A DNA stretch of 64,000 bases from Syntrophorhabdaceae bacterium. GTDB taxonomy: Bacteria > Desulfobacterota > Syntrophorhabdia > Syntrophorhabdales > Syntrophorhabdaceae. Numbering within the stretch: position 1 is the first letter of the stretch; the number at the start of each line of letters is the position of its first letter. Shown piece by piece: positions 1-48,777 of the stretch. The stretch covers positions 3,392,001 to 3,456,000 of the forward strand of contig OY762209.1 of the NCBI GenBank assembly GCA_963665295.1, in the 5' to 3' direction. The translations under genes and the position numbers were made by a program. A model generated the notes under the pieces. That model searched no databases. It was not told the origin of the DNA and saw only the letters and a program-made list of their open reading frames with translations.

Positions 1-415
1 CCGGGTGCTCTACGTGACGGATAATGCGGGAGAGATAGGATTTGATTCGATTGTGCTGAAATCCCTTAAAGATAGGGGGATCTATGTAACGTTGGTGGTA
101 AAGGAAGACGGTTTCTTTGAGGACGCGACCATGAGCGACGCGAGCTATTTTGGCCTTGAAGAAGTTGTTGATGAGATTGTTGCGTCAAGAGGGTTTTTCG
201 TGAGGGGCGAACTCTCAACCGCCCTGAGCATGGCCTATGATCTGTGTGACTTGATAATCGTGAAGGGTACCGGAAGCTTTGAGGCGCTAAGGGGGGAGAC
301 AGCCGAAAGAAAGGTTATTTTCATGCTCAAAGTGAAGTGCAAGCCCATCGCCATAGACACGGGGGTTGAGCAGGGCCGGGTCCTTGTGAAGGTGGAGGCT
401 GGTAAAATCCAATAA
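1..415 (+). CDS. DUF89/ARMT1-like damage-control phosphatase, 5'-truncated by the window edge
   Basis: Motifs YVTDNAGEIGFD, KGTGSFE and FMLKVKC match the C-terminal half of DUF89 proteins. The frame is open to the window start, and the stop is followed directly by the RBS (aaggagg) of the next gene. Confidence 0.8.
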   Translation, partial: RVLYVTDNAGEIGFDSIVLKSLKDRGIYVTLVVKEDGFFEDATMSDASYFGLEEVVDEIVASRGFFVRGELSTALSMAYDLCDLIIVKGTGSFEALRGETAERKVIFMLKVKCKPIAIDTGVEQGRVLVKVEAGKIQ

Positions 416-424
416 GGAGGAACT

Positions 425-2140
425 ATGGGACAGTTCATGTTTAAGCGACATGTACGAGAGTTTTGGCCGGAAAGAGACTTCAAGAAGTATCCGGTATGGT
501 TTGTCGATTTTTCTCACTCCTATCCCGCATGGACACCGCTTTTCGAGTGGACGTGGATCTTCAACCTCGTCCACGGTCACATTTATGGCTGTAATGAGGC
601 TTGGATACCCGAAACCAGGTCGTCTGATTGGCGCGAGATCGACGGAATGGCGATCTGCACTGCCACGCCCGTGCCTACCGAGGAGGAGGTCGAGTTCAGG
701 CGCAAGAAATTTTATGAACACATCAAGGGCGATTTCGAGCCCAATTACGATAAACACTGGGAGAAGAGCAAAACTGAGATGCTCGAGCGTTACAGCAAGC
801 TCAAGGATTTCGACTACGAGAAGGCGACATTCTACGAGTTATACAAGCTCTTCAACTTCGCTATAGAGACCCACAAAAGGATGTGGGAGGACCACTTTTA
901 CTTCATGTATGCCCTCTATGGGGCTTACTGGTACTTCGAGGACCTGTGCAAGAAATATGTGGGGATCAAGGAGACATCCACCGAGTGGCACAAGTTGGTT
1001 CGGGGTTACGAGAACATGCTCTTCCGCCAGGACAAGGCCATGTGGGAGCTTCGCAATAAGGCAATACAAAACGGTATCGATACCATTATTTCGGGCAACC
1101 CGGGCAACAAGGTCATCGAGGAACTGATGAAAACGCCCGCCGGCAAGGAGTGGGTCGAAAAGGACCTTGAGCACTTCATGCACGGTCTTGCCTACGGCTG
1201 GCGCATGATCAGGATGATGGAGTTCATCGAGCCCACGTGGTGGGAGCAGCCCGAAAGCGCCATACTCCACATACAACAGTACCTGATGGCGGACCGGGAG
1301 GTCAGGCCATTCCCGCTTGATGCAATAAGAGAAAAGCTGATCGAGGAACGAAAGGAAGTGGAACAGGCGATCGTGGCCAAAGCCGAGGCAAACGGGTGCA
1401 AGGACATGGAATGGTTCAAATGCCTCCTCCGGCTTTCCCAGAGGACCAGTTCTTTCAGCGAAAGTCACGACTTCCTTTACGAGCACAGGTGCTTTTCCGC
1501 GTTCCGTTTCGCCATGCTGAAGATCGGGGAGAGGCTCGCAAAGGTGGGCACTTTCAATAAGCCCGATGATATGTTCTTCTTCATCCCGGAAGAACTCCAA
1601 ACCATGATCGCCATGCCGGAAAACTATCAGTCGGGCTTCATCGCGGCCGAGCGAAGGCTGGAATGGATTGCCAACAAGGAATATCTCACCCGTCCGCCCA
1701 TTATGGCGAGAGATCCTTCCATGCAGCCCCATCAGGCAGGGGCATTCATGGTGGCTGCCAAGGACCCGATTATCGCCAAGATCACGATCGGCGAGTTTGT
1801 ACAGCCCGATCCGTCTACAGGGGCACTCTGCTTCGGCAACCCCGGAAGCCCCGGCGTGGCCGAGGGTACGGCCCGGATCGTCATTACCGCCGCAGACCTC
1901 AAGAAGATTCAATGGGGCGACATCATGGTCTGTCCGTCTTCGCAGTCTTCCTATACCCCCGTGTTCCCGCTTTTGAAAGGTGTTGTCTGCAATGGCGGAG
2001 GGAGTCTGTCCCACGGACCTATTGTGGGCCGTGAGTGGAATATCCCTGTTGTGGCCAATTGTATTACGGGAACACAATTGATAAAGGACGGCGACCGCAT
2101 CAGAGTAGATGGGTTTAAGGGGTTGGTCTACAAGCTTTAG
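425..2140 (+). CDS. Phenylphosphate synthase alpha-like subunit 1 (substrate-binding region plus PEP-utilising swivelling His domain)
   Basis: 571 aa. C-terminal GSPGVAEGTAR...GGSLSHGPIVGREWNIPVV is the phospho-His mobile domain. N-terminal WFVDFSH.P.WTP motif. No ATP-grasp or pyruvate-binding barrel. RBS aaggagg. Confidence 0.8.
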   Translation: MGQFMFKRHVREFWPERDFKKYPVWFVDFSHSYPAWTPLFEWTWIFNLVHGHIYGCNEAWIPETRSSDWREIDGMAICTATPVPTEEEVEFRRKKFYEHIKGDFEPNYDKHWEKSKTEMLERYSKLKDFDYEKATFYELYKLFNFAIETHKRMWEDHFYFMYALYGAYWYFEDLCKKYVGIKETSTEWHKLVRGYENMLFRQDKAMWELRNKAIQNGIDTIISGNPGNKVIEELMKTPAGKEWVEKDLEHFMHGLAYGWRMIRMMEFIEPTWWEQPESAILHIQQYLMADREVRPFPLDAIREKLIEERKEVEQAIVAKAEANGCKDMEWFKCLLRLSQRTSSFSESHDFLYEHRCFSAFRFAMLKIGERLAKVGTFNKPDDMFFFIPEELQTMIAMPENYQSGFIAAERRLEWIANKEYLTRPPIMARDPSMQPHQAGAFMVAAKDPIIAKITIGEFVQPDPSTGALCFGNPGSPGVAEGTARIVITAADLKKIQWGDIMVCPSSQSSYTPVFPLLKGVVCNGGGSLSHGPIVGREWNIPVVANCITGTQLIKDGDRIRVDGFKGLVYKL

Positions 2141-2255
2141 CGTGCGAGGCCCCGGGGTTCGGGGACTTCAAGTCCGGTGCTTATCCCGGAATCCTTGAGG
2201 CCTCGATCCCCGCTGCAGGAAGAGCGAGTCCAAACAGTCATTTAAGGAGAGGATA

Positions 2256-3011
2256 ATGAAACGTCTGGATGGAAAAGTTGCCATTATCACAGGGGCAGGA
2301 AAAGGCCTCGGCAAGGCGTTTGCGGTGAGGTTTGCCGAAGAGGGCGCCAAACTCGTACTTGTAACGAGAAAGGATATGGAAGGTCTCAAGAATGTTGCGG
2401 AGGAGGCTACTGCAAAAGGGGCGGAATGCATCTTCCTTAAGGCCGACGTGACGAATATCGAGGATGTGGGGAGAATGGCCGATGAGGCGGCTAAGAAATT
2501 CGGAAGGATCGACATACTCGTGAACAATGCCGCCTACTACTTCGGGGTGGAAAGAAGGCCCTTTAATACTATCCCTCTTGCAGAGTGGGACATGATGATG
2601 AACATCAATGTGAAGGGTCCGTGGCTTTGTGCCCGGGCGGTCTATCCCTATATGAAAGCCCAGGGGAAGGGCAAGATAATAAACCTCACCTCCGAGGTAT
2701 TTTTCACCGGTTCGAACGGATTTGTTCACTACGTTGCCTCAAAGGGAGGAGTGGTAGGACTCACAAGAGCCCTTGCCGCGGAACTGGGGCCTGACAACAT
2801 CACCGTCAACGGGGTGGCCCCGGGGTTCACCGATACGGAGGCAAGCAGGACCATCGCTGATGTGAATAAGTATGATGTATCGAAAACGCCTCTACGCAGG
2901 CTCGGGGTGGCCGAGGACATCATAGGAGCAACATTGTTCTTCGCCTCCGACGACGCCGACTTTGTAACCGGCGAGATACTTCTCGTAGACGGTGGAAGGG
3001 CCATGCACTGA
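2256..3011 (+). CDS. SDR family NAD(P)-dependent oxidoreductase
   Basis: TGAGKGLG, NNA, YVASK and VDGG motifs; RBS aaggag. Confidence 0.92.
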   Translation: MKRLDGKVAIITGAGKGLGKAFAVRFAEEGAKLVLVTRKDMEGLKNVAEEATAKGAECIFLKADVTNIEDVGRMADEAAKKFGRIDILVNNAAYYFGVERRPFNTIPLAEWDMMMNINVKGPWLCARAVYPYMKAQGKGKIINLTSEVFFTGSNGFVHYVASKGGVVGLTRALAAELGPDNITVNGVAPGFTDTEASRTIADVNKYDVSKTPLRRLGVAEDIIGATLFFASDDADFVTGEILLVDGGRAMH

Positions 3012-3066
3012 GCGGAGAACCTATGCGCACGTGAGGAAAGGACCAATCCGCCAAAGGAGGGCGATT

Positions 3067-3387
3067 ATGTATGTGAGAATGACGTTCTTTAAGACGCAAC
3101 CGGGGAAGTTGGACGCGGTACGTAATACCTATGTGAACGAAGTAATACCCATGCATAAAGGACACAAGGGTATCAGGTTCGTTCACCTCCTCGAAGATAT
3201 GGAGGCGCCTGACGAAGGGATCTCAATTACGGCCTGGGACACCAAGGGAGATCTGGAAGCCTATGAGAAGAGCGGAGATTACGCGAAGATAATCACAAAA
3301 TTCAAAGTGATGCTGAAGGGTGAAACGACACTGAGATCATACGAGGTTACCGCGAGTTCTGAACCCCTGCTCCTGCGGATATTTTAG
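3067..3387 (+). CDS. ABM-like dimeric alpha+beta barrel protein
   Basis: RBS aaggagg precedes ATG 3067 (in frame with ORF 2992). The sequence MYVRMTFF..QPGK...GISITAWDTK.D.EAY has the typical ABM pattern. Confidence 0.7.
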   Translation: MYVRMTFFKTQPGKLDAVRNTYVNEVIPMHKGHKGIRFVHLLEDMEAPDEGISITAWDTKGDLEAYEKSGDYAKIITKFKVMLKGETTLRSYEVTASSEPLLLRIF

Positions 3388-3521
3388 ATGAAAGGGCGGG
3401 AAGTACCTCACCAGTTTGACCACGCGGGCCCTTCGATGAGGCCGATTGGTAGCTTTATTTTCGAACCGCCGCAAAGGAGTGGCGGAGATATATACAAATC
3501 CCCTGAAGCGAGGCGCTGCCC

Positions 3522-5216
3522 ATGAAGGTGTACGATTGTGTACCCGGGTTGGAGTTCGACGAGAAAGATGATCTGGAACAATCACCCGCCTGGTTCCTCG
3601 ACGGGACGCATTGCGTGCCCCCTTGGACCCCTATGTTCGGATGGTTCTGGGTAAACTTCTGTCGTCACGGCATGCAGTATGGCGCCGACGCCCTTCAGAT
3701 CCCTACCACGAGAGGCTGGGACTGGCGTTTCAAGGACGGCGGGGGATATTTGACCATCATACCCGTGAACACCCAGGCCGAGAAAAGAGAAAGGGCAATC
3801 CGATTCCGCGAGGCAATAAAACCGTTCCTTGAAGATTACGACGGGCTATGGAGCGGATTTGTCTCCGAAATGCTCACGCGATACGAAAAGATAAAGAGCC
3901 TGGACGGCTCAAGGGCCACGAACGTCGAGCTTCTGCAGAATTTTGAATACGCCATCGATACATGCAGGAGGATGTGGGAGATCCACATGTATATGATGTA
4001 CGGCACATACATGCCCTACATCCTTTTTGAGCAGTTATGTATGCAGTTGTTCAACATCGACGACACGAATCCCACGTTTCTCACGCTCATGAGCGGCTTT
4101 GACAACGAAAGCTTCAGGGTAGACAAGGGTCTTTGGGATCTCTCCCGGAGGGCGGTGGCGCTGGGCCTGAAAGAGACCATAATCGACTCCCCCATGAAGG
4201 AGGTGGTGGACCGGCTGCACGTAACCGACAAAGGGTGCCAGTTCATGGAAGAACTCAAGTTGTTTCTCGATCGGAAGGCGGGGTGGCGCATGGAGAGAAT
4301 GGCCGAATTGAATACGCCCACATGGGCCGAGGAGCCCGGTCTCGCCCTCTCCAGAGTCAGAGTCTACCTCATGATGGGCAGGGAATATGACCTTGACAGG
4401 GAAAGACAGAAACGCGAGCGGGAAAGGACGAAAGCCGAGGAAGAACTGCTTCAGCAGATGGCCCCCGAACAGCGCGGATGGTTTTGCACGCTCATGAAAA
4501 TTGCCCAGAACTCAAGCCGCTTCAGCGAAGAGCATAACCACTATCTCGACCTTTATACCCATGCGGTAATCCGCAAAACCTGTCTTGATATGGGAAGACG
4601 TTTCGTAATCTCGGGGACCATCGAAAAGACCGATAATATATTCTTTCTCATACCTGACGAGGTAAGAAAGGCTATGCTCAACCCGGATAAAATGAGCCTC
4701 AAAACGATAGTATCGAGACGTCAGGCCGAGTGGAGTAGATGGAACGACACGGGAAATCCACCCTTCATATTGCGCAAGGGCTTCGGACTCGACAAAGCGA
4801 CGCAATTGTTGACCACTTCGTTTGACCCCATAGCTCTGAAGGTCGTGGTAGGCAAACTACCCGCAGCGAAGCCTGGACTGAAGGCGGACCTCTTCGGCAC
4901 CTGCGGTTCCCCGGGCGTGGCCGAGGGCACTGCCAGGCTGGTCCTGAAAGAGGATGACCTCGAAAAGGTGCAGGACGGCGATATTCTGGTTGCAGCTAGT
5001 ACCTCGCCTTCGTGGACCCCCATATTCGGCATGATACGAGGTTTGGTGGTGGACCGGGGTGGGGCGCTTTCCCATGCGGCCATAGTGGGGAGAGAATATG
5101 GGATCCCGGTTATCATGAACGTCTTCGAGGGGACCACTAAGCTGAAATCAGGCCAGAAGCTGAGAATAGATGCAAATCTCGGGACGGTTACGATATTGGA
5201 GACGGAGACCAAATAA
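3522..5216 (+). CDS. Phenylphosphate synthase alpha-like subunit 2 (substrate-binding plus His domain)
   Basis: 564 aa, paralog of 425..2140: WFLDGTH.PPWTP, RMWEIH, GWRM, SEEH, GSPGVAEGTAR...GGALSHAAIVGREYGIPVI. Confidence 0.82.
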   Translation: MKVYDCVPGLEFDEKDDLEQSPAWFLDGTHCVPPWTPMFGWFWVNFCRHGMQYGADALQIPTTRGWDWRFKDGGGYLTIIPVNTQAEKRERAIRFREAIKPFLEDYDGLWSGFVSEMLTRYEKIKSLDGSRATNVELLQNFEYAIDTCRRMWEIHMYMMYGTYMPYILFEQLCMQLFNIDDTNPTFLTLMSGFDNESFRVDKGLWDLSRRAVALGLKETIIDSPMKEVVDRLHVTDKGCQFMEELKLFLDRKAGWRMERMAELNTPTWAEEPGLALSRVRVYLMMGREYDLDRERQKRERERTKAEEELLQQMAPEQRGWFCTLMKIAQNSSRFSEEHNHYLDLYTHAVIRKTCLDMGRRFVISGTIEKTDNIFFLIPDEVRKAMLNPDKMSLKTIVSRRQAEWSRWNDTGNPPFILRKGFGLDKATQLLTTSFDPIALKVVVGKLPAAKPGLKADLFGTCGSPGVAEGTARLVLKEDDLEKVQDGDILVAASTSPSWTPIFGMIRGLVVDRGGALSHAAIVGREYGIPVIMNVFEGTTKLKSGQKLRIDANLGTVTILETETK

Positions 5217-5234
5217 AGCGATAAGGATGGGGCT

Positions 5235-5894
5235 ATGTTTTTATTTGTACAGTCGTGGGATATCGTTCGGGGGAAAGAAAAGGAGTATACCGATTTCGTG
5301 CTTGGGGAACACCTCCCGGTATTCCGGAGAATCGGCCTTAACGTAGTCGGAGGCTTTCATGTTATTGTCGGGGCCGGCCCGCGCATCAGCCACGTTGTCG
5401 CCGCCGGTGATCTCCGGAACCTCCAGGAGGCCCTGGAAACAGCAGATTTTCTCAGGATCACGGGATCGCTGCAGGAATACATAGTCAATTACAGCAGCAG
5501 GATATTCCGTCACACGGACAGAGTCAAACTGGAAACGTACGGCATCGGGATCGGAACATGGAGATTCAACCAGCACTATACCCTTATCCCGGGGGCGGAA
5601 GAAGAATATGGCCGCTTTCTTGGCAATGAATATTCCGCTGCGCTCCTTGACCAGGGGATAAGGATCAAAGCCGAGTGGCAGGGCCTCGTCGGTTCCGGTC
5701 CTTACCGCATCCTCCTGGAAGGAGTGGCAGAGAATATTCAGGATATCGCCGGGACCATAATTTCCGACGAGTACAGGGCTGTCAAGCGTACCCTTCTTAC
5801 CCGTTACGCGCGACAGTACAGCAGCAGGATTCTCGCGCCCACAGGGCGGGTGGAGGTCGCGTTTATTCTGGGAGAAATGACGAGGTCCCTGTGA
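5235..5894 (+). CDS. Hypothetical protein with two tandem NIPSNAP/alpha+beta-barrel-like repeats
   Basis: The two ~105-aa halves align: Q.W/Y...G.E.EY..F...E.......G......VG.GP.I...YSSRI. Confidence 0.6.
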   Translation: MFLFVQSWDIVRGKEKEYTDFVLGEHLPVFRRIGLNVVGGFHVIVGAGPRISHVVAAGDLRNLQEALETADFLRITGSLQEYIVNYSSRIFRHTDRVKLETYGIGIGTWRFNQHYTLIPGAEEEYGRFLGNEYSAALLDQGIRIKAEWQGLVGSGPYRILLEGVAENIQDIAGTIISDEYRAVKRTLLTRYARQYSSRILAPTGRVEVAFILGEMTRSL

Positions 5895-5969
5895 ATCGGA
5901 ACCGGGAGATGGGCGCCGGCCGTGCCAATGCTCCCTTGAAGGGAAAAACATGATGAGGAGGAACGCTCA

Positions 5970-7301
5970 ATGGCTATTGATATGAGCATTTACTGGAATC
6001 CTGTTCTAGAGACACTGCCCCGCGAAAAACTGCAAGAACTACAGGTGAAGAAGTTCGCGCGTATTTTCGAGTGGGCCTATAACAACTCGCCCTTCTACGC
6101 CAAAATTTACAGAGATGCGGGCATTGAACCGGGAGACATCAAAACGTTGGCGGATATCAGGAAGATCCCGAAAATAGACAAAGGTATGTTGAGGGATGTG
6201 CAGACCAGGGACCCCTTTCCCTATGGCGACATGCTTGCGGTGCCCCTCTCCATGGTTACCGAGTTCCGCCAGACGAGCGGAACTACGGGTACGCCCGTCT
6301 ATCAGGCGGACACCTGGCAGGATTGGGAGTGGTGGGCCGAGTGCTGGGCCTACATCCTCCATGCTCAGGGATACAGGGATACGGACAGGGTCTTCGTTCC
6401 TTTCGGCTACAATATTTTCGTAGCATTCTGGGCGGGTCACTATGCGGCGGAAAAGGTCGGGTGCGAGGTGGTACCGGGCGGGGTCCTCGACACGGAAGCC
6501 CGAATCATGAAGATGAGGGAACTGAAATGTAATGCATTTATGGCAACCCCCACGTACGTCCTCGGCATGGCCGACACTGCCAGGAAGATAGGAATAGAAC
6601 CCAAGAGTATAGGTATCCAAAAAATCACTTGCGCAGGGGAACCCGGCGCGAGTATCCCGACGACCAAACAACGCATCGAGGATGCATGGGGTGCGAAGGT
6701 ATATGACCACATAGGGGCAACGGAGATCGGGGCCTGGAGCTACATGTGCACTTCTCAACCGAGGGGTTTGCACGTGAACGAGGCCTTTTTTCTCGTGGAG
6801 ATCGAGGACGTGGAAACGGGTGAAATCATAGAGGAACCGGGCAGGAACGGTAAGATGGTCATTACCGCTTTTGACAGGATAGCCAAACCCTGCATCCGCT
6901 TCGATTCAAAGGACGTGATACGATGGGCCGATTACACATGCGAGTGCGGCAGGACCTTTCGCATCATCGACGGAGGCGTCGTCGGGAGGGCCGATGACAT
7001 AACCAAGGTGAAGGGTGTGCTCCTCGCCCCCACAGCCATAGAAGAGGTGGTGCGAAGCTTTGCGGAACTAAGCAACGAATATGAGGTGATAGTGACGAAG
7101 AAAGGCGACATCGACGATATCGCCCTCAAAATAGAGATCACCCCGGGTTTCGAGGAAAGAAAGGAAGCCCTTCTCGCAAGGCTCAAGGACGAGTTGCGGG
7201 TGAAGACGAACCTTGGATATAAGATCGAGGTCCATCCTCATGGCAGCCTCCCGCGCTATGAGGTGAAGGCAAAGAGGTTCAAAGACCTCAGAAAACATTG
7301 A
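5970..7301 (+). CDS. Phenylacetate-CoA ligase family (PaaK-like) aryl-CoA ligase
   Basis: QTSGTTGTP, ATPTY, AGEPG, HIGATE, GRADD..KVKGV and KAKRF motifs. Confidence 0.88.
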   Translation: MAIDMSIYWNPVLETLPREKLQELQVKKFARIFEWAYNNSPFYAKIYRDAGIEPGDIKTLADIRKIPKIDKGMLRDVQTRDPFPYGDMLAVPLSMVTEFRQTSGTTGTPVYQADTWQDWEWWAECWAYILHAQGYRDTDRVFVPFGYNIFVAFWAGHYAAEKVGCEVVPGGVLDTEARIMKMRELKCNAFMATPTYVLGMADTARKIGIEPKSIGIQKITCAGEPGASIPTTKQRIEDAWGAKVYDHIGATEIGAWSYMCTSQPRGLHVNEAFFLVEIEDVETGEIIEEPGRNGKMVITAFDRIAKPCIRFDSKDVIRWADYTCECGRTFRIIDGGVVGRADDITKVKGVLLAPTAIEEVVRSFAELSNEYEVIVTKKGDIDDIALKIEITPGFEERKEALLARLKDELRVKTNLGYKIEVHPHGSLPRYEVKAKRFKDLRKH

Positions 7302-7315
7302 AAGGAGGGACAAAC

Positions 7316-7495
7316 GTGGACACCCGGTACGACATAAATGCGATGGACGAAAAGATAAGGCTCATCCGCAAGACCGCGGAGGAGTTGATGAGTATAGGCG
7401 GTGGGATCGAAGCGGTGAAGAAGAATCTGGTGAGACTGCTGGCAAGCACAAAGATGCTCGAACTGAACATAAGCGACGCGAAAGAAGTGCTTTGA
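7316..7495 (+). CDS. Small helical hypothetical protein (~59 aa)
   Basis: Strong RBS aaaggagg at 7301-7308 before GTG 7316; fills the gap between two co-oriented genes. Confidence 0.6.
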   Translation: MDTRYDINAMDEKIRLIRKTAEELMSIGGGIEAVKKNLVRLLASTKMLELNISDAKEVL

Positions 7496-7535
7496 CAGAT
7501 GGCTTCCCGCGCCGGACCGATATCAGGGGGCGACA

Positions 7536-8561
7536 ATGGAACAGTGGATATTCTGGTTCGACGAACTCGATAAAGCACACAATGACATTGTAGGAAAGAA
7601 GTGCGCCCACCTCGGCGAACTTATCAGGTTGGGTCTCAATGTTCCGTGGGGCTTCGCAATTTCGGTGAAGGGGTTCGAAGAATTCATGAGGACCACCGGA
7701 GCCGATGAGGAACTGAAAGATGGTATGGCTTCAGCCCGGGACGAAGGGAAAAAGGTCGAAGCCTGTCACAGGGCGAGCCGCATCGCCAGGAACATCATAG
7801 AGTCAAAGCAGATGCCGGAAGCGATGGACAATGAAATTCGCGCACATTACCGGGAACTCTGCTGTCGGTCCGGGAGGCAGAATATGGCGGTTGCAGTCCG
7901 TTCAAGCGGGTCCAGGAGCATGCCGGGCCAAATGGAAACATATCTTAATGTCGAGGGCGAAAATGCAGTCCTCACCCATATCAAGAAAGTGTGGGGCAGT
8001 TCATATAGTCCCGCGGCAATAGCCTTCAGGGCAGGGCATGATTTGCCGCTGGAATGGGCTCCCATCGGCGTGGCGATAATGACCCTCGTCGATGCGAAGG
8101 CCGCCGGGGTCGCCCTTACGGTTGAACCTACCACGGGTGATGCCACAAAGGTAGTCATAGAGGGCAACTGGGGCCTTGGAGAGAGCGTGGTAGGCGGGGT
8201 TATCACACCGGATTCTTTTACCGTCGACAAAGAGAGCATGGAGATTATCGAGAGAAGGATTACCCGCAAAACAAGCATGGTGGTTCGTGGCCCATGGGGA
8301 ACCCGCTATAAGGATACCCCTCATGATCTTCAGGAACGGCCCTGTATCAATGATGAAGAGATAAGGGAGATTGTGAGGGTAGCCATCCAGGTCGAACAGC
8401 ACTTCGGGGTGGCTCAGGACATGGAATGGGTGGTGGACGGACTTCTTCCTCCGGGCGAGGATGTCTTTTGGCTCCAGGCGCGCCCCGCCGGTTATGCGAA
8501 GATGGACAAAGCAGATGAAATGGATTACCTCATCGATCTCATGGTGAGGCTTTTCAAGTGA
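7536..8561 (+). CDS. Phenylphosphate synthase beta-like subunit (PEP-synthase N-terminal ATP-binding domain)
   Basis: GKKCAHLGEL, VAVRSSG, PGQMETYLNV, GNWGLGESVVGG, QDMEW and LQARP motifs; a stand-alone 341-aa nucleotide-binding domain. Confidence 0.87.
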   Translation: MEQWIFWFDELDKAHNDIVGKKCAHLGELIRLGLNVPWGFAISVKGFEEFMRTTGADEELKDGMASARDEGKKVEACHRASRIARNIIESKQMPEAMDNEIRAHYRELCCRSGRQNMAVAVRSSGSRSMPGQMETYLNVEGENAVLTHIKKVWGSSYSPAAIAFRAGHDLPLEWAPIGVAIMTLVDAKAAGVALTVEPTTGDATKVVIEGNWGLGESVVGGVITPDSFTVDKESMEIIERRITRKTSMVVRGPWGTRYKDTPHDLQERPCINDEEIREIVRVAIQVEQHFGVAQDMEWVVDGLLPPGEDVFWLQARPAGYAKMDKADEMDYLIDLMVRLFK

Positions 8562-8599
8562 TGGGTTGTTACGCATAAGAAAAAGGGGGTACTTAAAAC

Positions 8600-11266
8600 A
8601 TGGAGGAGATCAATTTCAGCATTAATGGCCTGCCCATAAAGGTTATTTCCGACCCGAAGAAGACTTTGCTCAAAGTACTTCGGGAAGACCTCCACCTGAC
8701 TGGAACCAAGGAAGGGTGCTCCGCAGGCCACTGCGGCACTTGTGCCGTACTCGTGGACGGAGAAATTGTCATGTCGTGCCACTATCCGCTGGAAAAGGCA
8801 CGGAACAAGAAGGTGGTAACCATTGAGGGCATAGGGACACTGGAGAAACCTCATCCTATTCAGATAGCATTTGCGGTAAACGGCGCGGTCCAGTGCGGGT
8901 TCTGCACGCCGGGCATGATCATCCGGGCTAAATGGCTTCTCGACAAGAATCCTAAGCCCTCACGGGAGGAGATAACGTCGGCGATCCAGCCCCATCTCTG
9001 CCGGTGCACAGGTTATGTCAGGATTGTTGACGCCATAGAGACGGCCGGCGCGTTCCTCCGGAATGAGATCAGATCCATGGAGCCGGATAAAGGCAAAGGT
9101 ATACTCGGCGAGCGGGTTCCGCGGCGCGATGCCCTGGAAAAGGCAACAGGCGCGACGCTCTTTGTCGATGATATCCCTATTAGCGGTGTGGCCCATATCA
9201 AGGTGGTAAGAAGTCCCCACCATCACGCAAGGATTGTGAATATAGATACGCAGCAGGCCCAATCGGTGCCGGGCGTGCTTGCCGTACTCACATCAGAGGA
9301 CGTAAAGGGGACCAACATCCTCAAGATGGCAGGTGACGATCAACCCATCCTCTGCGGTTTAAAGGTTCGGATGGTCGGCGACCCCGTGGCAGCGGTAGTT
9401 GCCGTCACGGAAAACGCGGCACGCGAAGCCCGGGAAAAGGTTAAAGTGACATACGAAGAACTGCCTGCGGTAGCCACCCATGAAGATGCGCTCAAGGAGG
9501 GCGCGCCCCAAGTCCACGACGGCAAGGCCAATCTCTTCTTTGATCAGCCTATCGTCTATGGCGATGTGGAAAAGGGCTTCGAAGACGCGGACGTAACGGT
9601 AGAGGGCGACTTTTCGACCCAGGTTATAGAGCATGGCTATCTGGAGACCGATTCCGGCGTTGCCTACATCCATGAGAACGGACAGCTCGTGGTCATGACA
9701 CCCAGCCAGAACATCTATGCCCACAGGAATGCAATAGCCGGCGCCGTCGGGCTGCCGCCGGAAAAGGTTCGCATGATCCAGACGGTGACGGGCGGCGCCT
9801 TTGGCGGCAAACTGGACGTTTCGGTCGGAGGAATTCTCGCGGCGGCCGCACTGGCCCTCCGGCGGCCCGTAAAGCTGGTATACACGAGGGAAGAGGTGTT
9901 TGCGGCCACCACAAAGCGCCACGCCTTCCATATGAAGGCCAGGATCGGCGCAAGGAGGGACGGCACGCTTACCGCTTTTCAAATGGACCTCATCGCGGAC
10001 GGAGGCGCCTATAAATCGTTTTCGGGGAGCGTGGTAACGCGAGGCATCGTCCACTCGAGCGGTCCCTACAGGTATGAGAGCGCCAAGGTGCGTGGGAGGG
10101 CGGTCTACACAAATTCGGCCATAAAGGGCGCTATGAGAGGTTTCGGGGTCCCCCAGACGATCTTTGTGACAGACTCCATTCTTGACGAAATTGCGGAGAA
10201 GATTGGAATGGACCCCTTTGAACTGAGGCTGAAGAACGCCTATGTCCCGGGTGACACGACCATCTGCGCACAGGGTCTTGACCATGGCTTTGGCTTCAGG
10301 GAATGCTTCGAGGGGCTGCGTCCCCACTATGAAAGGGCGGTAAAAGAGGCCAAGACCGCGTCTACGGACGCCGTAAGGAGAGGGGTGGGCCTGGGCACTG
10401 TCTTTTTCGGACCGGGAAGAAGCTCCCCGGACCAGTCTGAGGCGTGGGCGGAACTCCTGCCCGACGACAGGCTCCAGGTCTGGATCGGTTCGGCCGACAT
10501 GGGGCAAGGCTCCGATACCATGTTCTGGCAAATAGCGGCAGAGGCCTTCAATTACCCTCTCGAAAAGGTGGTTGTCTGCACCACGGACACGAACCACGTG
10601 CCTGACGGGAACTTTTCTGCCGGGAGCCGCCAGACTTACGTTTCCGGAAAGGCCGTCCAAAAGGTGGTGGAGCAGTTGAAAAACACCATGGAAGAGAATG
10701 GGTGCAAGACGTACTCGGATATGAAGGAAAAGGGCATCTCCCCCATAAGCAAACTGGTGCATCATACTGCAACTACAAAACTGGACCCTGTGGATGGACA
10801 CGGTACGCCATGGGAAACCTACTCCTTTGGAATCCAGTTGGCCGAGGTGGCGGTAGACGTGAAGACGGGCCGCATAGACGTATTGAAAATAACCGCCGCC
10901 CACGACTTGGGAAGGATTATCAACAGGATCAACTGTGACGGTCAGATGTTTGGCGGGATAGCGATGGGAATGGGCTATGCCCTCTCGGAAGAGTACCGGT
11001 ACAATGAAACGAAGAGCTTCGCCGGATTCAGAATGCCGAGGGCTAAAGACATTCCCGACATGGAAATAGTCTACATCGAAGTGCCCCGGGAGAACGGGCC
11101 CTTCGGCGCCTCCGGGGCGGGCGAGTTTGCAGACGTCCCCACGGCACCCGCCATTGCCAACGCGGTGTATAATGCGTGCGGCGTGCGCGTGCGCCATCTC
11201 CCCATTACCAAGGAGAAGGTTAAGGCCGCCCTCGCCGCAAAACCGGTTGGGAGACCGGGAGAGTAG
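8600..11266 (+). CDS. Xanthine-oxidase-family molybdopterin oxidoreductase, fused 2x[2Fe-2S] plus Mo domains (Mop/aldehyde oxidoreductase architecture)
   Basis: GTKEGCSAGHCGTC, QCGFCTPG, LCRCTGY, GGAFGGK, AMRGFG.PQ, DMGQG, GSRQT and GAGE (catalytic Glu); no FAD domain. Confidence 0.9.
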   Translation: MEEINFSINGLPIKVISDPKKTLLKVLREDLHLTGTKEGCSAGHCGTCAVLVDGEIVMSCHYPLEKARNKKVVTIEGIGTLEKPHPIQIAFAVNGAVQCGFCTPGMIIRAKWLLDKNPKPSREEITSAIQPHLCRCTGYVRIVDAIETAGAFLRNEIRSMEPDKGKGILGERVPRRDALEKATGATLFVDDIPISGVAHIKVVRSPHHHARIVNIDTQQAQSVPGVLAVLTSEDVKGTNILKMAGDDQPILCGLKVRMVGDPVAAVVAVTENAAREAREKVKVTYEELPAVATHEDALKEGAPQVHDGKANLFFDQPIVYGDVEKGFEDADVTVEGDFSTQVIEHGYLETDSGVAYIHENGQLVVMTPSQNIYAHRNAIAGAVGLPPEKVRMIQTVTGGAFGGKLDVSVGGILAAAALALRRPVKLVYTREEVFAATTKRHAFHMKARIGARRDGTLTAFQMDLIADGGAYKSFSGSVVTRGIVHSSGPYRYESAKVRGRAVYTNSAIKGAMRGFGVPQTIFVTDSILDEIAEKIGMDPFELRLKNAYVPGDTTICAQGLDHGFGFRECFEGLRPHYERAVKEAKTASTDAVRRGVGLGTVFFGPGRSSPDQSEAWAELLPDDRLQVWIGSADMGQGSDTMFWQIAAEAFNYPLEKVVVCTTDTNHVPDGNFSAGSRQTYVSGKAVQKVVEQLKNTMEENGCKTYSDMKEKGISPISKLVHHTATTKLDPVDGHGTPWETYSFGIQLAEVAVDVKTGRIDVLKITAAHDLGRIINRINCDGQMFGGIAMGMGYALSEEYRYNETKSFAGFRMPRAKDIPDMEIVYIEVPRENGPFGASGAGEFADVPTAPAIANAVYNACGVRVRHLPITKEKVKAALAAKPVGRPGE

Positions 11267-26473: not shown

Positions 26474-26665
26474 GCCCTCGACTTCTACGTTGGCGGGTCC
26501 CATACCACTTGAAAAGATGGCTGTGGGGTGTATCGAAACGATACAGACGCGTTTCGACGATGGATGTCGCCCGTGCTTAGATTATTGGAAGGTTGTGCGT
26601 TACGATAGTCCCGGCTTTGGTCAAACTACCAGGGACTATAACAAAATTAATTTTTTGGGGGTACC

Positions 26666-27694
26666 ATGAAACGTTTCAGTATTATCAGTCTTTTAGCAGT
26701 GTTCTGTGTTTCGGTGATGTGTGTGGTTGCGTCGGTCGGTTCTGCCGCCGAAGAGAAGGCCATTACACTCAGATTCTCTACGTTCTTTCCGCCCACTCAT
26801 CCATTGGCGGTTATTACCGCCGACTGGTGCAAGGAAGTTGAAAAAAGGACATCAGGAAGGGTCAAAATCCGCCAGTATGCAGGCGGAACACTGACACCGC
26901 CCGCCCAGACATACGACAGCGTGGTCCAGGGCGTAGTTGACGGCGGCAACATCGTCCTCGGTTACACCATGGGCAAGTTCCCCCTGTCCGAGGTCCTCGA
27001 TTATCCGCTCGGATACCCGAACGGAACCGTGGCGCATAAGCTGGCCAACGCCTATTATGCGAAGTTCAATCCCAAAGAGTTCAGCGAAGTGAAGCCTATG
27101 TATTTTGCGGGCCAGACACCCGGTATTCTCCACACCAGGAAACCGGTATACAAACTGGAGGACCTGAAGGGCATGAAGATAAGGACCTTCGGTTCAAACG
27201 CACGGTTCATGTCCCTCCTTGGCGGCGTTCCCGTTGCCATGCCTATGGGTGATGCCTATGACGCCCTTTCAAAGGGTGTTGCAGATGGTCTCCTTTGCGC
27301 AGACGAAGTCTTGAAGAGCTGGAAGATCGGCGAAGTGGTGAAGTATACCACCCAGAACTACGGCAGCGCCTATACGGCCATCTTTATCGTAGCATTGAAT
27401 AAGAACAAATGGGCAACCATAAAGCCTGAAGACCAGAAGATCATCGAGCAGATCAATGCTGAGTGGATCGACAGGTCAGCGAAAGTCTGGGAACAGATCG
27501 ACAAAGAAGGTCAGGCCTTTGCAAATCAGAGAGGTATTAAGGTTATCAAACTCTCCAAGGAAGAAGACGCCCGCTGGGCCGCAAAGGCGCAGCCTCTCTT
27601 CGAGGAGTACGTAAAGAACATGAAGGCGAAGAACCTTCCCGGCGACGAGGTGCTCAAGTTCGCCCGCGAATTCATAAAGAAGAACAGCAAGTAA
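26666..27694 (+). CDS. dctP: TRAP transporter substrate-binding protein, copy 1
   Basis: Signal peptide; EDLKGMKIR (conserved Arg) and PVAMPMGDAYDALSKGVADG motifs. Confidence 0.93.
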   Translation: MKRFSIISLLAVFCVSVMCVVASVGSAAEEKAITLRFSTFFPPTHPLAVITADWCKEVEKRTSGRVKIRQYAGGTLTPPAQTYDSVVQGVVDGGNIVLGYTMGKFPLSEVLDYPLGYPNGTVAHKLANAYYAKFNPKEFSEVKPMYFAGQTPGILHTRKPVYKLEDLKGMKIRTFGSNARFMSLLGGVPVAMPMGDAYDALSKGVADGLLCADEVLKSWKIGEVVKYTTQNYGSAYTAIFIVALNKNKWATIKPEDQKIIEQINAEWIDRSAKVWEQIDKEGQAFANQRGIKVIKLSKEEDARWAAKAQPLFEEYVKNMKAKNLPGDEVLKFAREFIKKNSK

Positions 27695-29525
27695 AAACAA
27701 GAGCGCCGGGGAGTATTCCCCGGCGCCTCTTCCAGGAGGTTTAATGAGCGCATTTGTTGCGGTGTTCAAGAGGATATGCAGTTGGATGAACGGACTTGCG
27801 GGGGTCGTGCTTTTCTTTATGCTGATGCTCACCGTGGCGGACGTGGTGCTCCGCATGTTCGGCACCGCTATACTCGGGACCTACGAACTGGTTGCCGTCT
27901 CGGGCGCCATAGTCGTCGGGTTCGCCGTGCCCCAGACCACATGGGGAAAAGGGCACGTGGCGGTTGACTTCCTTATCGAGAACCGTTCCCCTGCAGTGAA
28001 GAACACATTCTTCATCGTCACGAGACTCATGGGGATAATCCTTTTTGCCCTTCTCTCCTTCTTCCTTTACCGGAAAGGGATCCACCTGTACAAAACCGGC
28101 GAGGTCTCCCTGACTCTCCACATACCCTATTTCCCTGCTTCATTTGGTCTGGCATTCTGCTTCTTTATCGAATGCTTCGCACTTATAAGCGATATTTTCA
28201 AGATATTCATCGTGGAGAAAGAAAATGGATGAAATAACTGTCGGAATAGTCGGAATAGTTGTCCTGTTGGGATTGTTCCTGACGGGTATCGAACTCGCCT
28301 TTGCCATGGCGATCATCGGGGTTGCGGGCTATGCGATCGTGGTCGGCCCCGGCCCTGCCATGAACATACTGGCAAATGACTTCTACGATGCCCTCGAATC
28401 ATACAGCCTCACCGTGGTGCCCCTCTTTGTCCTTATGGGACAGATCGCATTCAACGCGGGTATCGCGAAGAGACTCTATGACAGTGCCCACAGGTTCCTG
28501 GGTCACATCCCCGGAGGCCTTGCCATGGCCACCGTGGCAGGGGCCACGGTCTTTAAAGCCATATGCGGCTCCCAGGTCGCCACCTGCGCCACCTTCGCAA
28601 GCGTCGCGGTCCCCGAGATGGACCGCTTCAACTACAGCAAGAAACTCTCAACAGGCATCGTGGCCACCGTGGGTACCTTAGGCGTGCTCATCCCCCCGAG
28701 CGTCATCCTCATCATACTCGGGATCATCACCCAGCAGTCCATAGGGAAGCTCTTCATGGCAGGCGTGATCCCCGGTCTCATGCTCGCCTTCTTCTTTCTC
28801 GTGGTCATCTTCGGGTGGGCGCGGATAAACCCCACCATAGGGCCCGCATGCGAACCTTTTTCATGGAAGGAGAGAGTGGCGACCCTGCCCGCCGTCATCT
28901 GGCCCATCGTGATCTTCTGCGTCATGATCGGGGGCCTTATGAAAGGCTTCTTCACCCCTACCGAAGCAGGCAGCGTGGGGACCTTCGCAGTCCTTCTCCT
29001 CTGCCTCGTCAAAAAGGACATCAACTTCCAGGGCCTCAAGCGCTCCATCCTGGAGGCGTTACGGACTTCCTGCATGGTGCTCCTCATCGTGGCATCCTCC
29101 AGCGTGCTCGGTCACTTCGTGGCAGTGACGAACATACCGGACATCGTGGCCCAGTGGGTAGTGACTCTTCCCCTTAACCGCCACATCATCATGAGCATCA
29201 TCTTTATCGTCTACCTCGTAGGAGGGTCGTTCATCGACGACCTCGCGTTCATGATTCTCGCCACACCCATATTCTTCCCCGCCATACTCTCCATGGGGTA
29301 CGACCCCATATGGGCATGCATCATGGTCTCCCTCACCGTCTGCGTGGGCTCCGTGATCCCTCCCGTCGCCATGTGCGTATTCGTGGTGAAGAACATCACG
29401 AAGGTGCCTATGAGTATCATCTACTCGGGCGTCTACCCGTTCCTCATCTCCCTTATCATCTGCATCATACTCTTCTTCATATTCCCGCAGCTGATACTTT
29501 ATCTGCCGGGAGTGTTTATGTCGTA
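27545..29525 (+). repeat. 1981-bp direct repeat, copy 1 (3' end of dctP, dctQ, dctM)
   Basis: Matches 30709..32689 at offset 3164. Translations are identical and no nucleotide differences were seen by eye. Confidence 0.9.
27744..28232 (+). CDS. dctQ: TRAP small permease
   Basis: 162 aa, 4 TM segments, DVVLR and GHVAVD motifs. Confidence 0.92.
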   Translation: MSAFVAVFKRICSWMNGLAGVVLFFMLMLTVADVVLRMFGTAILGTYELVAVSGAIVVGFAVPQTTWGKGHVAVDFLIENRSPAVKNTFFIVTRLMGIILFALLSFFLYRKGIHLYKTGEVSLTLHIPYFPASFGLAFCFFIECFALISDIFKIFIVEKENG

Positions 29526-29526
29526 A
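28225..29526 (+). CDS. dctM: TRAP large permease
   Basis: 433 aa; VPLFVLMG, IPPS, FTPTEAG and PPV motifs. Confidence 0.94.
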   Translation: MDEITVGIVGIVVLLGLFLTGIELAFAMAIIGVAGYAIVVGPGPAMNILANDFYDALESYSLTVVPLFVLMGQIAFNAGIAKRLYDSAHRFLGHIPGGLAMATVAGATVFKAICGSQVATCATFASVAVPEMDRFNYSKKLSTGIVATVGTLGVLIPPSVILIILGIITQQSIGKLFMAGVIPGLMLAFFFLVVIFGWARINPTIGPACEPFSWKERVATLPAVIWPIVIFCVMIGGLMKGFFTPTEAGSVGTFAVLLLCLVKKDINFQGLKRSILEALRTSCMVLLIVASSSVLGHFVAVTNIPDIVAQWVVTLPLNRHIIMSIIFIVYLVGGSFIDDLAFMILATPIFFPAILSMGYDPIWACIMVSLTVCVGSVIPPVAMCVFVVKNITKVPMSIIYSGVYPFLISLIICIILFFIFPQLILYLPGVFMS

Positions 29527-29573
29527 GGGGGTACGGGATTTCTTGAAAAGACTGCTTCAATAGTGAATAGGGC

Positions 29574-29620
29574 AACAGAAAGGGCCCCCGGCGTGTGAAC
29601 GCCGGGGGCCCTTTCTGTTT
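29574..29620. terminator. Rho-independent terminator (21-bp stem)
   Basis: aacagaaagggcccccggcgt-gtga-acgccgggggccctttctgtt followed by further T. Confidence 0.8.
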
Positions 29621-29832
29621 ATATACCGACCTCGGAAGAGGGGTCTATTCTGGGGCGGTAGGACAGGTGGCGGGAAAGACACGTGCTCATAGGGGACAAA
29701 AGTGTGTCGAAGGGGCACATGCGGGGAACGAGTCCGGGGCGGACGGTCCGTTTATTACTCGGTTTATGAAATGGCCCTGAATTTGCTATGCTTTTTTACA
29801 AGCGACAACAAATACATTTTCAAGGGGGTATT

Positions 29833-30858
29833 ATGAGACGTTCCAGCACCATCAGTGTATTCGCAGTCTTCTGTTTCGCGGTAATGGTTATGGCGGCTTC
29901 ATCGGGCTATGCCCAGGAGAAGGCCATTTCCTTAAGGTTCTCCACCTTCTTTCCTCCCACCCACAAGCTCGCGGTAGTCACTGCGGACTGGTGTAAGGAA
30001 GTGGAAAAGAGGACCCACGGTAAGGTGAAAGTCCGCCAGTACGCGGGGGCCACCCTTACCCCTCCGGGCCAGACCTATGACAGTGTGGTCCAGGGCGTGG
30101 TAGACCTGGGTAATATCGTTCTTGGCTACACCATGGGCAAATTTCCCCTCACCGAGGTCCTCGACTATCCCCTGGGATACCCGAACGGCGCTGTATCCAC
30201 CCACCTCGCCAACGCCTACTTCAAGAAGTTCAACCCCAAGGAGTTCGGTGACGTGAAGGTCATGTACTTCCACGGCCAGACCCCGGGCATCCTCCACGCG
30301 AGAAAACCCGTGAACAAACTTGAGGACCTGAAGGGCATGAAGATGAGGACCTTCGGCTCGAACGCCCGGTTCATGTCCCTCCTGGGCGGCACCCCTGTGG
30401 CCATGCCCATGGGTGATGCCTATGACGCCCTTTCAAAGGGTGTAGCCGACGGTCTCCTCTGCCCGTACGAGGCCCTCGAGGGCTGGAAGCTCGGCGAGGT
30501 GATCAAGTTTACCACGGAGAACTACGGCACCGCCTACACGGCCGTATTCGTGGTTGCCATGAACAAGGACAAATGGAACAGCATCTCTCCGGAGAACCAG
30601 AAGATCATCGAGCAGATCAACCAGGAATGGATCGAGAAACAGGCCCAGGTCTGGGAGGCCATCGATGAGTCGGGCAAAGCCTTCTCCCTCAAGAGGGGCA
30701 ACAAAATCATCAAACTCTCCAAGGAAGAAGACGCCCGCTGGGCCGCAAAGGCGCAGCCTCTCTTCGAGGAGTACGTAAAGAACATGAAGGCGAAGAACCT
30801 TCCCGGCGACGAGGTGCTCAAGTTCGCCCGCGAATTCATAAAGAAGAACAGCAAGTAA
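29833..30858 (+). CDS. dctP: TRAP substrate-binding protein, copy 2 (diverged from copy 1)
   Basis: Signal peptide and KGMKMR; RBS aggggg before ATG 29833. Confidence 0.93.
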   Translation: MRRSSTISVFAVFCFAVMVMAASSGYAQEKAISLRFSTFFPPTHKLAVVTADWCKEVEKRTHGKVKVRQYAGATLTPPGQTYDSVVQGVVDLGNIVLGYTMGKFPLTEVLDYPLGYPNGAVSTHLANAYFKKFNPKEFGDVKVMYFHGQTPGILHARKPVNKLEDLKGMKMRTFGSNARFMSLLGGTPVAMPMGDAYDALSKGVADGLLCPYEALEGWKLGEVIKFTTENYGTAYTAVFVVAMNKDKWNSISPENQKIIEQINQEWIEKQAQVWEAIDESGKAFSLKRGNKIIKLSKEEDARWAAKAQPLFEEYVKNMKAKNLPGDEVLKFAREFIKKNSK

Positions 30859-36768: not shown

Positions 36769-36769
36769 T

Positions 36770-41195: not shown

Positions 41196-41274
41196 CAGGC
41201 AACGAACTCTTAAAACATCATAGGCCCATTGTGACGCATTGGACCTATAGAACCAATCAGGCGGGGAACTTAAC

Positions 41275-42948: not shown

Positions 42949-43005
42949 AAACAAGGGTTGCAGGTGGAAATAATCCGGACCGCGACTCAATTATTTGGAG
43001 GAAAG

Positions 43006-44864: not shown

Positions 44865-44865
44865 C

Positions 44866-48762: not shown

Positions 48763-48777
48763 TATCCGGGAGGAGAA

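Follow-up and report, generated by a model that had tools for sequence, protein, structure and literature searches.

The Cre route of Corynebacterium glutamicum, described by Du et al. in 2016, reportedly employs a P450 methyl hydroxylase, alcohol and aldehyde dehydrogenases and a phosphatase. Here we describe an operon that could be an anaerobic counterpart of this route, located at the beginning of a 64,000-nucleotide stretch of a Syntrophorhabdaceae genome (C1:3392001-3456000 of genome G000, a one-contig assembly, 98% complete; the entire stretch is hereafter the window). Like the Cre genes, the operon combines a two-component dikinase, enzymes for side-chain oxidation and a phosphatase, and encodes no ring carboxylase. 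In the Cre route, the dikinase CreHI starts 4-cresol degradation by phosphorylation (PMC9618137, in excerpt). We propose, with a probability of about 0.6, that the operon follows the same pathway logic. Gene content and order, conservation, catalytic motifs, exchanges of genes within functional slots and tree position are observations, whereas the substrate, the order and direction of the steps and every activity named below are inferred.

Several other described systems resemble the operon in part. With the phenylphosphate synthase-carboxylase systems (PpsAB(C)-Ppc) and Pas-alpha/beta of Desulfatiglans anilini, it shares the split kinase, the kinase His motif and neighbors encoding an alpha+beta barrel and a Tm-1-like protein. 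Kinase-initiated, O2-independent side-chain processing, a phosphatase and a CoA ligase are features in common with Hpe/Acv of Rhodococcus and Sphingobium and with Xcc of Aromatoleum aromaticum EbN1; sister clusters of the operon family carry a biotin carboxylase. The operon itself has no carboxylase but an aldehyde oxidoreductase, fitting a methyl rather than an acetyl side chain. The limonene dehydrogenase CtmAB of Castellaniella defragrans and the Delta24-desaturase (Delta24-SD) of Sterolibacterium denitrificans are, like the flavoproteins of the operon, encoded by two tandem genes for phytoene-dehydrogenase-like proteins of ~550 aa with low mutual identity; their N-terminal flavinylation motif has an apparent variant in the operon pair, with the His kept in FAD1 and replaced by Cys in FAD2. 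CtmAB hydroxylates an allylic methyl group with water, and Delta24-SD is a steroid desaturase (PMC11061730, in excerpt). Finally, the phosphatase gene of the operon contains PF01937, the domain of the DUF89/ARMT1 damage-control phosphatases.

The operon also differs from Cre. There is no P450 match in the operon cluster, where a flavoprotein pair, a short-chain dehydrogenase/reductase (SDR) and a Mo/W enzyme are present instead. The dehydrogenase and phosphatase slots correspond by function class (SDR, Mop-type and DUF89 enzymes here; tungsten aldehyde oxidoreductase (W-AOR), aldehyde dehydrogenase (ALDH) or HD phosphatase in relatives) and not by orthology, the substrate-binding kinase subunits (alphas) fall outside the ~45% identity group of PpsA/CreH/HpeH, a CoA ligase follows, and the hosts are mostly strict anaerobes. 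The operon is real and conserved and, within the literature searched, would represent a new anaerobic form of phosphorylation-initiated aromatic side-chain oxidation.

Layout and conservation of the operon

Ten open reading frames (ORFs) on the + strand occupy positions 2-11266 of the window, with intergenic gaps of 9-134 nt, and all of them belong to the families that an earlier, sequence-only reading of the window had named for ten co-oriented, closely spaced genes. That reading was right on these ten genes and overlooked that the cluster continues upstream of the window, where three further co-oriented genes encode a 134-aa protein and the flavoprotein pair FAD1 and FAD2, the key conserved oxidation gene; a divergent LysR gene and a Tm-1-like gene lie in the same flank (L001:12990-19437, L001 being the G000 stretch that holds the upstream flank, numbered separately from the window). 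Together, these genes form a 13-gene operon that ends at position 11266, the following gene being on the opposite strand. The features are listed below, with matches from a Pfam/NCBIfam profile scan of 16 proteins (cluster and upstream flank) and from structure comparisons.

L001:14526-15467, divergent: LysR regulator
L001:15654-17294, co-oriented with the window cluster: FAD1 flavoprotein, 546 aa
L001:17316-17720, co-oriented with the window cluster: 134-aa protein
L001:17755-19437, co-oriented with the window cluster: FAD2 flavoprotein, 560 aa
2-415, +: DUF89/ARMT1-like metal phosphatase, 3' part (gene start at L001:19459, outside the window); PF01937, two halves with E 1.9e-23 and 1.1e-7
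425-2140, +: alpha1, predicted substrate-binding and His-swivel dikinase subunit, 571 aa; PF00391, PRK08296-like
2256-3011, +: SDR, 251 aa; PF13561, E 1.7e-63; TGxxxGxG and YVASK motifs
3067-3387, +: ABM-family alpha+beta barrel, 106 aa; PF03992
3522-5216, +: alpha2, predicted substrate-binding and His-swivel dikinase subunit, 564 aa; PF00391
5235-5894, +: tandem dimeric alpha+beta barrel, 219 aa; AF2 model with pLDDT 93, Foldseek matches 3f44/2pgc
5970-7301, +: PaaK-type CoA ligase, 443 aa; TIGR02155 below cut-off, phenylacetate-CoA ligases in PDB
7316-7495, +: 59-aa protein, called from sequence alone
7536-8561, +: beta, predicted ATP-grasp dikinase subunit, 341 aa; PF01326, E 6.9e-81
8600-11266, +: Mop-type Mo aldehyde oxidoreductase, 888 aa; one chain bearing two [2Fe-2S] motifs; PDB 1sij and 1dgj, E about 1e-180

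The two alpha+beta barrels recognized earlier are thus both borne out, one by its Pfam match and the other by its structural model. The 59-aa protein has no match in Pfam or NCBIfam, and the ESM Atlas matches of the 134-aa protein are unnamed clusters only.

The same gene order is found in other genomes, including Syntrophorhabdus aromaticivorans UI, so the arrangement is far above chance. A genome scan with alpha2 confirmed 142 stretches, of which the best 80, mostly from Thermodesulfobacteriota, with some Alphaproteobacteria and one Anaerolineales record, were used for locus counts; neighboring genes were counted within a 10-kb flank in the 43 of these 80 loci that span at least 19 kb (hereafter, long loci). 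Alpha2 relatives (E < 1e-150) are present in 19 of the 301 genomes sampled from the phylum. In an order-level survey of 88 genomes, a FAD2 ortholog (at least 73% identity) is encoded in 31, and in 26 of these 31 a ~560-aa alpha gene is located at most 6.5 kb away on the same contig. The near-constant core consists of beta (43/43 long loci), the 219-aa barrel, the SDR and FAD2 (41/43 each). The CoA ligase (7/43) and the second alpha, alpha1 (3/43), are lineage extras, and the DUF89 phosphatase and the Mo enzyme, both of which are swapped for other enzymes in relatives, are also outside the core. Hence the conserved linkage that the sequence-only reading called for holds for the operon, which recurs, and fails for the ligase, DUF89 and the Mo enzyme as core members.

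In eight aligned LysR-FAD1 spacers an AT-rich block is conserved, and the G000 copy contains TTGACC-17 nt-CATAAT, likely to be a promoter accompanied by a LysR site; control of the 13-gene operon by LysR is likely as well. Within the window, a promoter/terminator scan performed no better than chance.

The split kinase and the carboxylase question

As had been noticed from the sequence, the kinase is split into substrate/His subunits and an ATP-binding subunit, with PF00391 and PF01326 on separate ORFs. Both alphas have the catalytic His motif GGxxSH near the C-terminus (GGSLSH530 in alpha1, GGALSH518 in alpha2), comparable to the GGxxxH motif of two-component dikinases (PMC12167813, in excerpt). 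In alpha2, H518 and E336 are invariant in 71 aligned sequences, and the top PDB match is rifampin phosphotransferase (RPH). By domains and motifs, alpha1/alpha2 and beta are thus predicted to form a split two-component small-molecule dikinase of the PpsAB/CreHI/HpeHI architecture. An analogy with the 25-hydroxysteroid kinase was rejected: that enzyme is a 40-kDa single phosphotransferase, and the accessible part of its description mentions neither phenylphosphate nor rifampin enzymes.

Neither alpha is PpsA. Both are 25% identical to PpsA (the reference being the alpha linked to a Ppc operon, not the Thauera sequence), and beta is 37% identical to the Ppc-linked PpsB. In a quick IQ-TREE phylogeny of 74 of the 122 collected alpha rows (every third row kept from the 55-62% group), PpsA, alpha1 and alpha2 form three separate groups, and an approximately unbiased (AU) test on 29 rows rejects the grouping of alpha1 with PpsA (p = 0.007); the phylogeny called for by the sequence-only reading therefore places neither alpha within PpsA. 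HpeH, CreH and PpsA share about 45% identity (PMC12167813, in excerpt), and orthology of the alphas with CreH is unlikely because CreH is ~45% and the alphas 25% identical to PpsA.

Alpha2 is likely the conserved kinase subunit that phosphorylates the entering compound. Alpha1 is predicted to be a lineage-specific second alpha with a pocket unlike that of alpha2: its orthologs (82-88% identity) occur in 9 of the 88 genomes of the order, 3 kb from alpha2 in 8 of the 9, and 41 conserved positions differ between the two, many of them in the likely pocket. The 219-aa barrel also adjoins PpsA in three loci (L112, L121 and L122), i.e., it is a companion of split kinases, canonical PpsAB included; a predicted complex of alpha2 with this barrel scored 0.01 and is not counted as evidence. 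The Tm-1-like (UPF0261) gene at L001:12990-14264 belongs to a family found in 22/43 long loci and also with Pps-Ppc operons and sister clusters. Two Syntrophorhabdales loci (L133, L134) follow the gene order of the aniline cluster in D. anilini, a 554-aa alpha being accompanied there by UbiD, ligase, Tm-1-like and beta genes; by this analogy, a role of these clusters in aniline activation is possible.

The absence of UbiD, UbiX and a CBS-domain PpsC from the cluster, noted earlier, extends to all 16 scanned proteins, and the upstream flank, which had been singled out as the place to look, contains no UbiD/ppc gene. Lack of the CBS subunit is a weak discriminator since D. anilini has none either. 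Across the 80 loci, UbiD is unlinked in 77, being found within 10 kb in 3/80 (3/43 long loci), and UbiX in none. The label "carboxylase-less" is therefore apt locally and not genome-wide: G000 encodes five UbiD genes (at 87 kb, 1.926-1.931 Mb and 4.889 Mb), the nearest more than 1.4 Mb from the operon. Those at 1.926 Mb (C1:1926014-1932646, or L083:13014-19646; 1.46 Mb away) form a cluster of two large UbiD, two small HAD-like proteins, an 84-aa subunit, a third UbiD, UbiX and riboflavin kinase, the subunits of which we take to be those of Ppc. The genes of this cluster are 70-82% identical to genes adjoining PpsAB in strain UI. There is, however, no PpsAB at the 1.926-Mb cluster and no alpha of PpsA length (~615 aa) in G000, unlike most relatives; possibly, entry of phenol has been lost or phenylphosphate is supplied in trans.

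One of the alphas could then be a stand-in phenylphosphate synthase for the remote Ppc, the other operon genes being bystanders. Apart from the kinase-less yet otherwise full ppc cluster of G000, such a role would agree with the recruitment of subunits across clusters in D. anilini, where Pas-alpha/beta phosphorylate phenol too (PMC7500099, in excerpt). We nevertheless consider it improbable. Genome G002 encodes both alphas and no Ppc-like match above 29%, and UI has both alphas besides true PpsAB, so that feeding Ppc with phenylphosphate is not the purpose of the operon; moreover, the AU test separates alpha1 from PpsA, and the linked oxidoreductases would be left unexplained.

The flavoprotein pair and the exchangeable slots

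FAD1 and FAD2 are phytoene-dehydrogenase-like (CrtO/CrtI-family matches are below cut-off) and 23% identical to each other. In CtmAB and Delta24-SD, the characterized heterodimers of this type that the literature search yielded, the flavin is covalently bound at the His of G-F-L/R-X-N/S-T/L-H-A (PMC11061730, in excerpt). The corresponding site of FAD1 is GMLVDSHA, with the His kept, and 16 of 24 more distant FAD1 homologs in the next group have the exact consensus, GFLHNTHA. The pair thus appears to carry a variant of the CtmAB covalent-flavin motif, a likeness by motif and description. By analogy with CtmAB, the pair is likely to catalyze the methyl-hydroxylating step. Unlike CtmAB, it is separated by the 134-aa gene, has no CtmEF ferredoxin pair and is linked to a kinase and a phosphatase, and in one group of relatives FAD2 is present alone with EtfAB.

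FAD1 is found in 26/43 long loci, and the ABM barrel follows it closely (21/26 loci with FAD1, 0/17 without). FAD1, the small protein and the ABM barrel replace EtfAB and an HdrD-like gene, the two sets occurring together in 1/43 loci; on the alpha2 tree, this split amounts to 3 changes only, and since the loci are related, Fisher P values for such co-occurrences are too strong. Because the two sets substitute for each other, FAD2 is likely the catalytic core, from which electrons would leave by either of two outlets. Homologs of FAD1 with 64-79% identity (P0147, P0148, P0197 and P0199) are labeled as Bathyarchaeia, Nitrososphaerota and Thermoproteota archaea. Further along the window (35674-47285), a CCG protein, EtfBA, a 904-aa FAD/FeS oxidoreductase and HdrA-like genes lie near acyl-CoA dehydrogenases and likely form an electron-bifurcating module. 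At G000:C1:3475750-3480157 (L156, L157), genes for FAD-binding (485 aa), FeS/Cys-rich (445 aa) and FAD-binding (538 aa) proteins have the three-gene layout of the abundant flavoprotein of the benzene degrader BzS1 (PMC13416013, in excerpt), to which they are likened in layout alone. The benzene flavoprotein was rejected as a relative of FAD1/FAD2, given that it belongs to the VAO/PCMH family.

The SDR likely converts a benzyl alcohol to the aldehyde, as judged from its family. The Mo enzyme has the Mop architecture (two [2Fe-2S] motifs and the Mo domains in one polypeptide, without a FAD domain) with Glu840 kept, and its NF045668 score of 821 bits is below the cut-off of 1100; it likely acts like Mop, without being an equivalog, in oxidation of the aldehyde to the acid. 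Its membership in the xanthine oxidase family would also suit an idea raised in the sequence-only reading, namely that it hydroxylates an N-heterocycle, the lactam oxygen of which is then activated by the kinase. This idea can be all but set aside: the match to the Mop aldehyde oxidoreductase (1sij, the top PDB match) is far above those to heterocycle hydroxylases, and the Mo enzyme is present in only 14/43 long loci, being replaced by unrelated aldehyde oxidizers (W-AOR, ALDH) that do not hydroxylate rings.

In the aldehyde-oxidizing slot, W-AOR is found in 20/43 long loci (both enzymes in 1, either in 33). In the phosphatase slot, DUF89 (19/43) and HD (20/43) phosphatases alternate in much the same manner, with both in 1 locus and any phosphatase, one of low molecular weight (LMW) included, in 38/43. 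On the alpha2 tree (32 and 37 rows), no fewer than 7 changes are needed for either swap. The swaps suggest that the pathway includes a single oxidation of an aldehyde and a single dephosphorylation. DUF89 likely removes the phosphate tag, and the PaaK-type ligase, an accessory enzyme, probably activates the aromatic acid. Two ligase paralogs with 86% identity (G000:C1:885159-886690 and 1607122-1608668) each have a paralog of the 59-aa protein behind them, a pairing suggestive of a mobile unit. Altogether, the sequence-only reading is supported in part: its phosphorylate-oxidize-dephosphorylate logic withstands the refuting conditions set for it, given the flank without ppc/ubiD, the alphas outside PpsA and the conserved linkage, with the amendment that the key conserved gene for oxidation would be the flavoprotein pair.

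Candidate substrates and the proposed route

Four lines of evidence point to an alkylphenol substrate. First, S. aromaticivorans UI, a cultured syntroph, degrades p-cresol (PMC3916484) and carries the operon in the same order (L006), with its Ppc genes no more than about 7 kb away. The anaerobic entries into cresol degradation cited in the accessible part of PMC13416013 are PCMH and hydroxybenzylsuccinate synthase. In the UI genome, with the proviso that absence from a draft is not proof, there is no PF02901 glycyl-radical match, no DMSO-reductase type II (EbdA-type) match over cut-off and, in the VAO family, no PCMH, the matches being limited to three FAD oxidases of GlcD-like type and a frame of 303 aa; because no known starter enzyme was found, the operon would explain the use of p-cresol by UI. 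Cresol is not mentioned in PMC6114531. Second, true PpsAB, too, has barrel and Tm-1-like genes as neighbors.

Third, the sister clusters (L116, L119, L120 and L129) combine a ~560-aa alpha, a flavoprotein pair and an SDR with biotin carboxylase, thiolase, ligase and an LMW or HD phosphatase. The Hpe carboxylase accepts only phosphorylated phenyl ketones, and by gene content alone the sister clusters match the Hpe/Xcc logic for phospho-acetophenones (PMC9618137, in excerpt), which makes them candidates for an anaerobic ethyl/propylphenol route. L131 is another sister cluster; these clusters encode a beta as well, with one or more flavoproteins, and some include methylmalonyl-CoA mutase. Fourth, D. 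anilini encodes, in H567DRAFT_01538-01549, EtfA, EtfB, a 547-aa phytoene-dehydrogenase-related protein, a 560-aa PEP-synthase-like protein and hypothetical proteins of 219 and 289 aa, a match by annotation, length and order only. On all four of phenol, aniline, 4-aminobenzoate and benzoate, the levels of the 547-aa and 560-aa proteins remain close to 1e8 (Table S1), compared with 3-11e9 for PpsA on phenol and 6-27e9 for Pas-alpha on aniline or 4-aminobenzoate (PMC7500099, in excerpt); these four compounds are therefore unlikely inducers.

Our best single guess for the substrate is p-cresol, by analogy and at somewhat less than even odds. In the proposed route, the kinase would use ATP to phosphorylate the ring hydroxyl of a methyl-substituted phenol; the flavoprotein would then abstract hydride at the methyl group and, with addition of water, give the alcohol without O2; the SDR would oxidize the alcohol to the aldehyde and the Mop-type enzyme the aldehyde to the acid; DUF89 would take off the phosphate, and the PaaK-type ligase would join the aromatic acid to CoA. 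In Castellaniella, alcohol and aldehyde dehydrogenases likewise act after CtmAB, and a CoA thioester is then formed, the same slots as in the operon (PMC4109377, in excerpt). In a two-alpha version, alpha1 might hand the phosphate from the oxidized product to fresh substrate, saving two ATP equivalents per turn for a cell that lives at the limit of thermodynamics; HpeH alone performs such a phosphate transfer.

At G000:C1:3557813-3569000 (L084), an orphan second beta (64% identical to the window beta) is encoded together with a LysR paralog (76%), an HGD-D/benzoyl-CoA-reductase-like gene pair and ligases. In G058, from the same genus, the operon LysR is followed by a 2-hydroxyacyl-CoA dehydratase/benzoyl-CoA reductase-like pair and a ligase, so that there the block is immediately next to the operon; possibly, the 3.558-3.569 Mb block provides a downstream step of the pathway. 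The window also contains a 2.9-kb TRAP transporter unit duplicated in tandem (26657-32689; 92% DNA identity); another copy, the third, lies around 47731-50554.

The steps could also come in another order, such that the flavoprotein hydroxylates the free phenol through a quinone-methide, after which the reactive hydroxybenzyl alcohol or aldehyde would be captured by the kinase as its phosphate, which would pull the uphill first step. Hydride removal is easier with a free para-OH (PMC13416013, in excerpt). Furthermore, HpeHI phosphorylates 4-hydroxybenzaldehyde too, and two alphas with unlike pockets could serve two intermediates. Still, this order seems unlikely to us, FAD1 and FAD2 being outside the VAO/PCMH family. 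In Cre, the kinase reportedly acts first and the next enzyme requires the phosphate, which counts against this order. The Hpe kinase also acts first, and the enzyme that follows it requires the phosphate (PMC9618137, in excerpt).

Kinase-first phosphorylation of a methylphenol, the reading we prefer, has to be weighed against a number of observations. The alphas, at 25% identity to PpsA compared with ~45% within PpsA/CreH/HpeH, form a clade far from all proven phenol kinases; alpha2 is closer, at 31%, to 554-aa Pas-alpha-like proteins (assigned only from synteny and length), which leaves an amine or a different hydroxyl as a possible acceptor. The FAD2 site is GFIQNVCA, with Cys where CtmAB has His, and the flavoprotein family includes the desaturase Delta24-SD (PMC11061730, in excerpt). 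Phosphorylation removes the quinone-methide route needed by PCMH (PMC13416013, in excerpt), so that the methyl hydroxylation would proceed via a less stabilized cation. The cost would be four ATP equivalents before ring reduction, which is high for a syntroph. No phosphatase is found within 10 kb in 5/43 long loci and no W or Mo enzyme in 10/43; of the latter ten, two (L071 and L043) have an NAD-ALDH in this slot, and in the others the gene may be cut off by the 10-kb flank. The UI result on glycyl-radical enzymes comes from a draft. Finally, our literature search found no description of the operon, but subscription papers were outside its coverage, among them the full analysis of the UI genome (Nobu 2015), which may propose another p-cresol route.

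Some of these observations would also fit a reductive or non-phenolic route, in which the phosphate of an allylic or benzylic alcohol serves as a leaving group, or an amine (toluidine) is phosphorylated, and the flavoprotein desaturates or deoxygenates. The position of the alphas outside the phenol-kinase clade and the desaturase in the flavoprotein family are in line with it, and FAD1/small protein/ABM and EtfAB being nearly exclusive (together in 1/43), FAD1 could run a separate half-reaction. However, the constant phosphatase slot argues for a removable tag rather than a leaving group, the barrel and Tm-1 partners and the site beside Pps-Ppc point to phenolics, and an oxidative step fits coupling to ETF/HdrD; we regard such a route, too, as rather unlikely.

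If the phosphorylation-first route is correct, we would tentatively extend it, as a possibility below that of p-cresol itself, to a third O2-free attack on the cresol methyl group in syntrophs and sulfate reducers: covalent-flavin, water-dependent hydroxylation of an aryl-phosphate methyl group, distinct from both the quinone-methide chemistry of PCMH and fumarate addition, with phosphate recycling in the two-alpha version and with sister clusters for ethyl- and propylphenols. Cresols are major pollutants and breakdown products of lignin and tyrosine. The operon can be tested directly in a cultured strain, and its genes could serve as markers in methanogenic and sulfate-reducing systems. If true, the proposal would assign a first function to a large branch of two-component dikinases that has gone unstudied, and it would add aromatics to the terpenes as substrates of covalent-flavin methyl hydroxylases.

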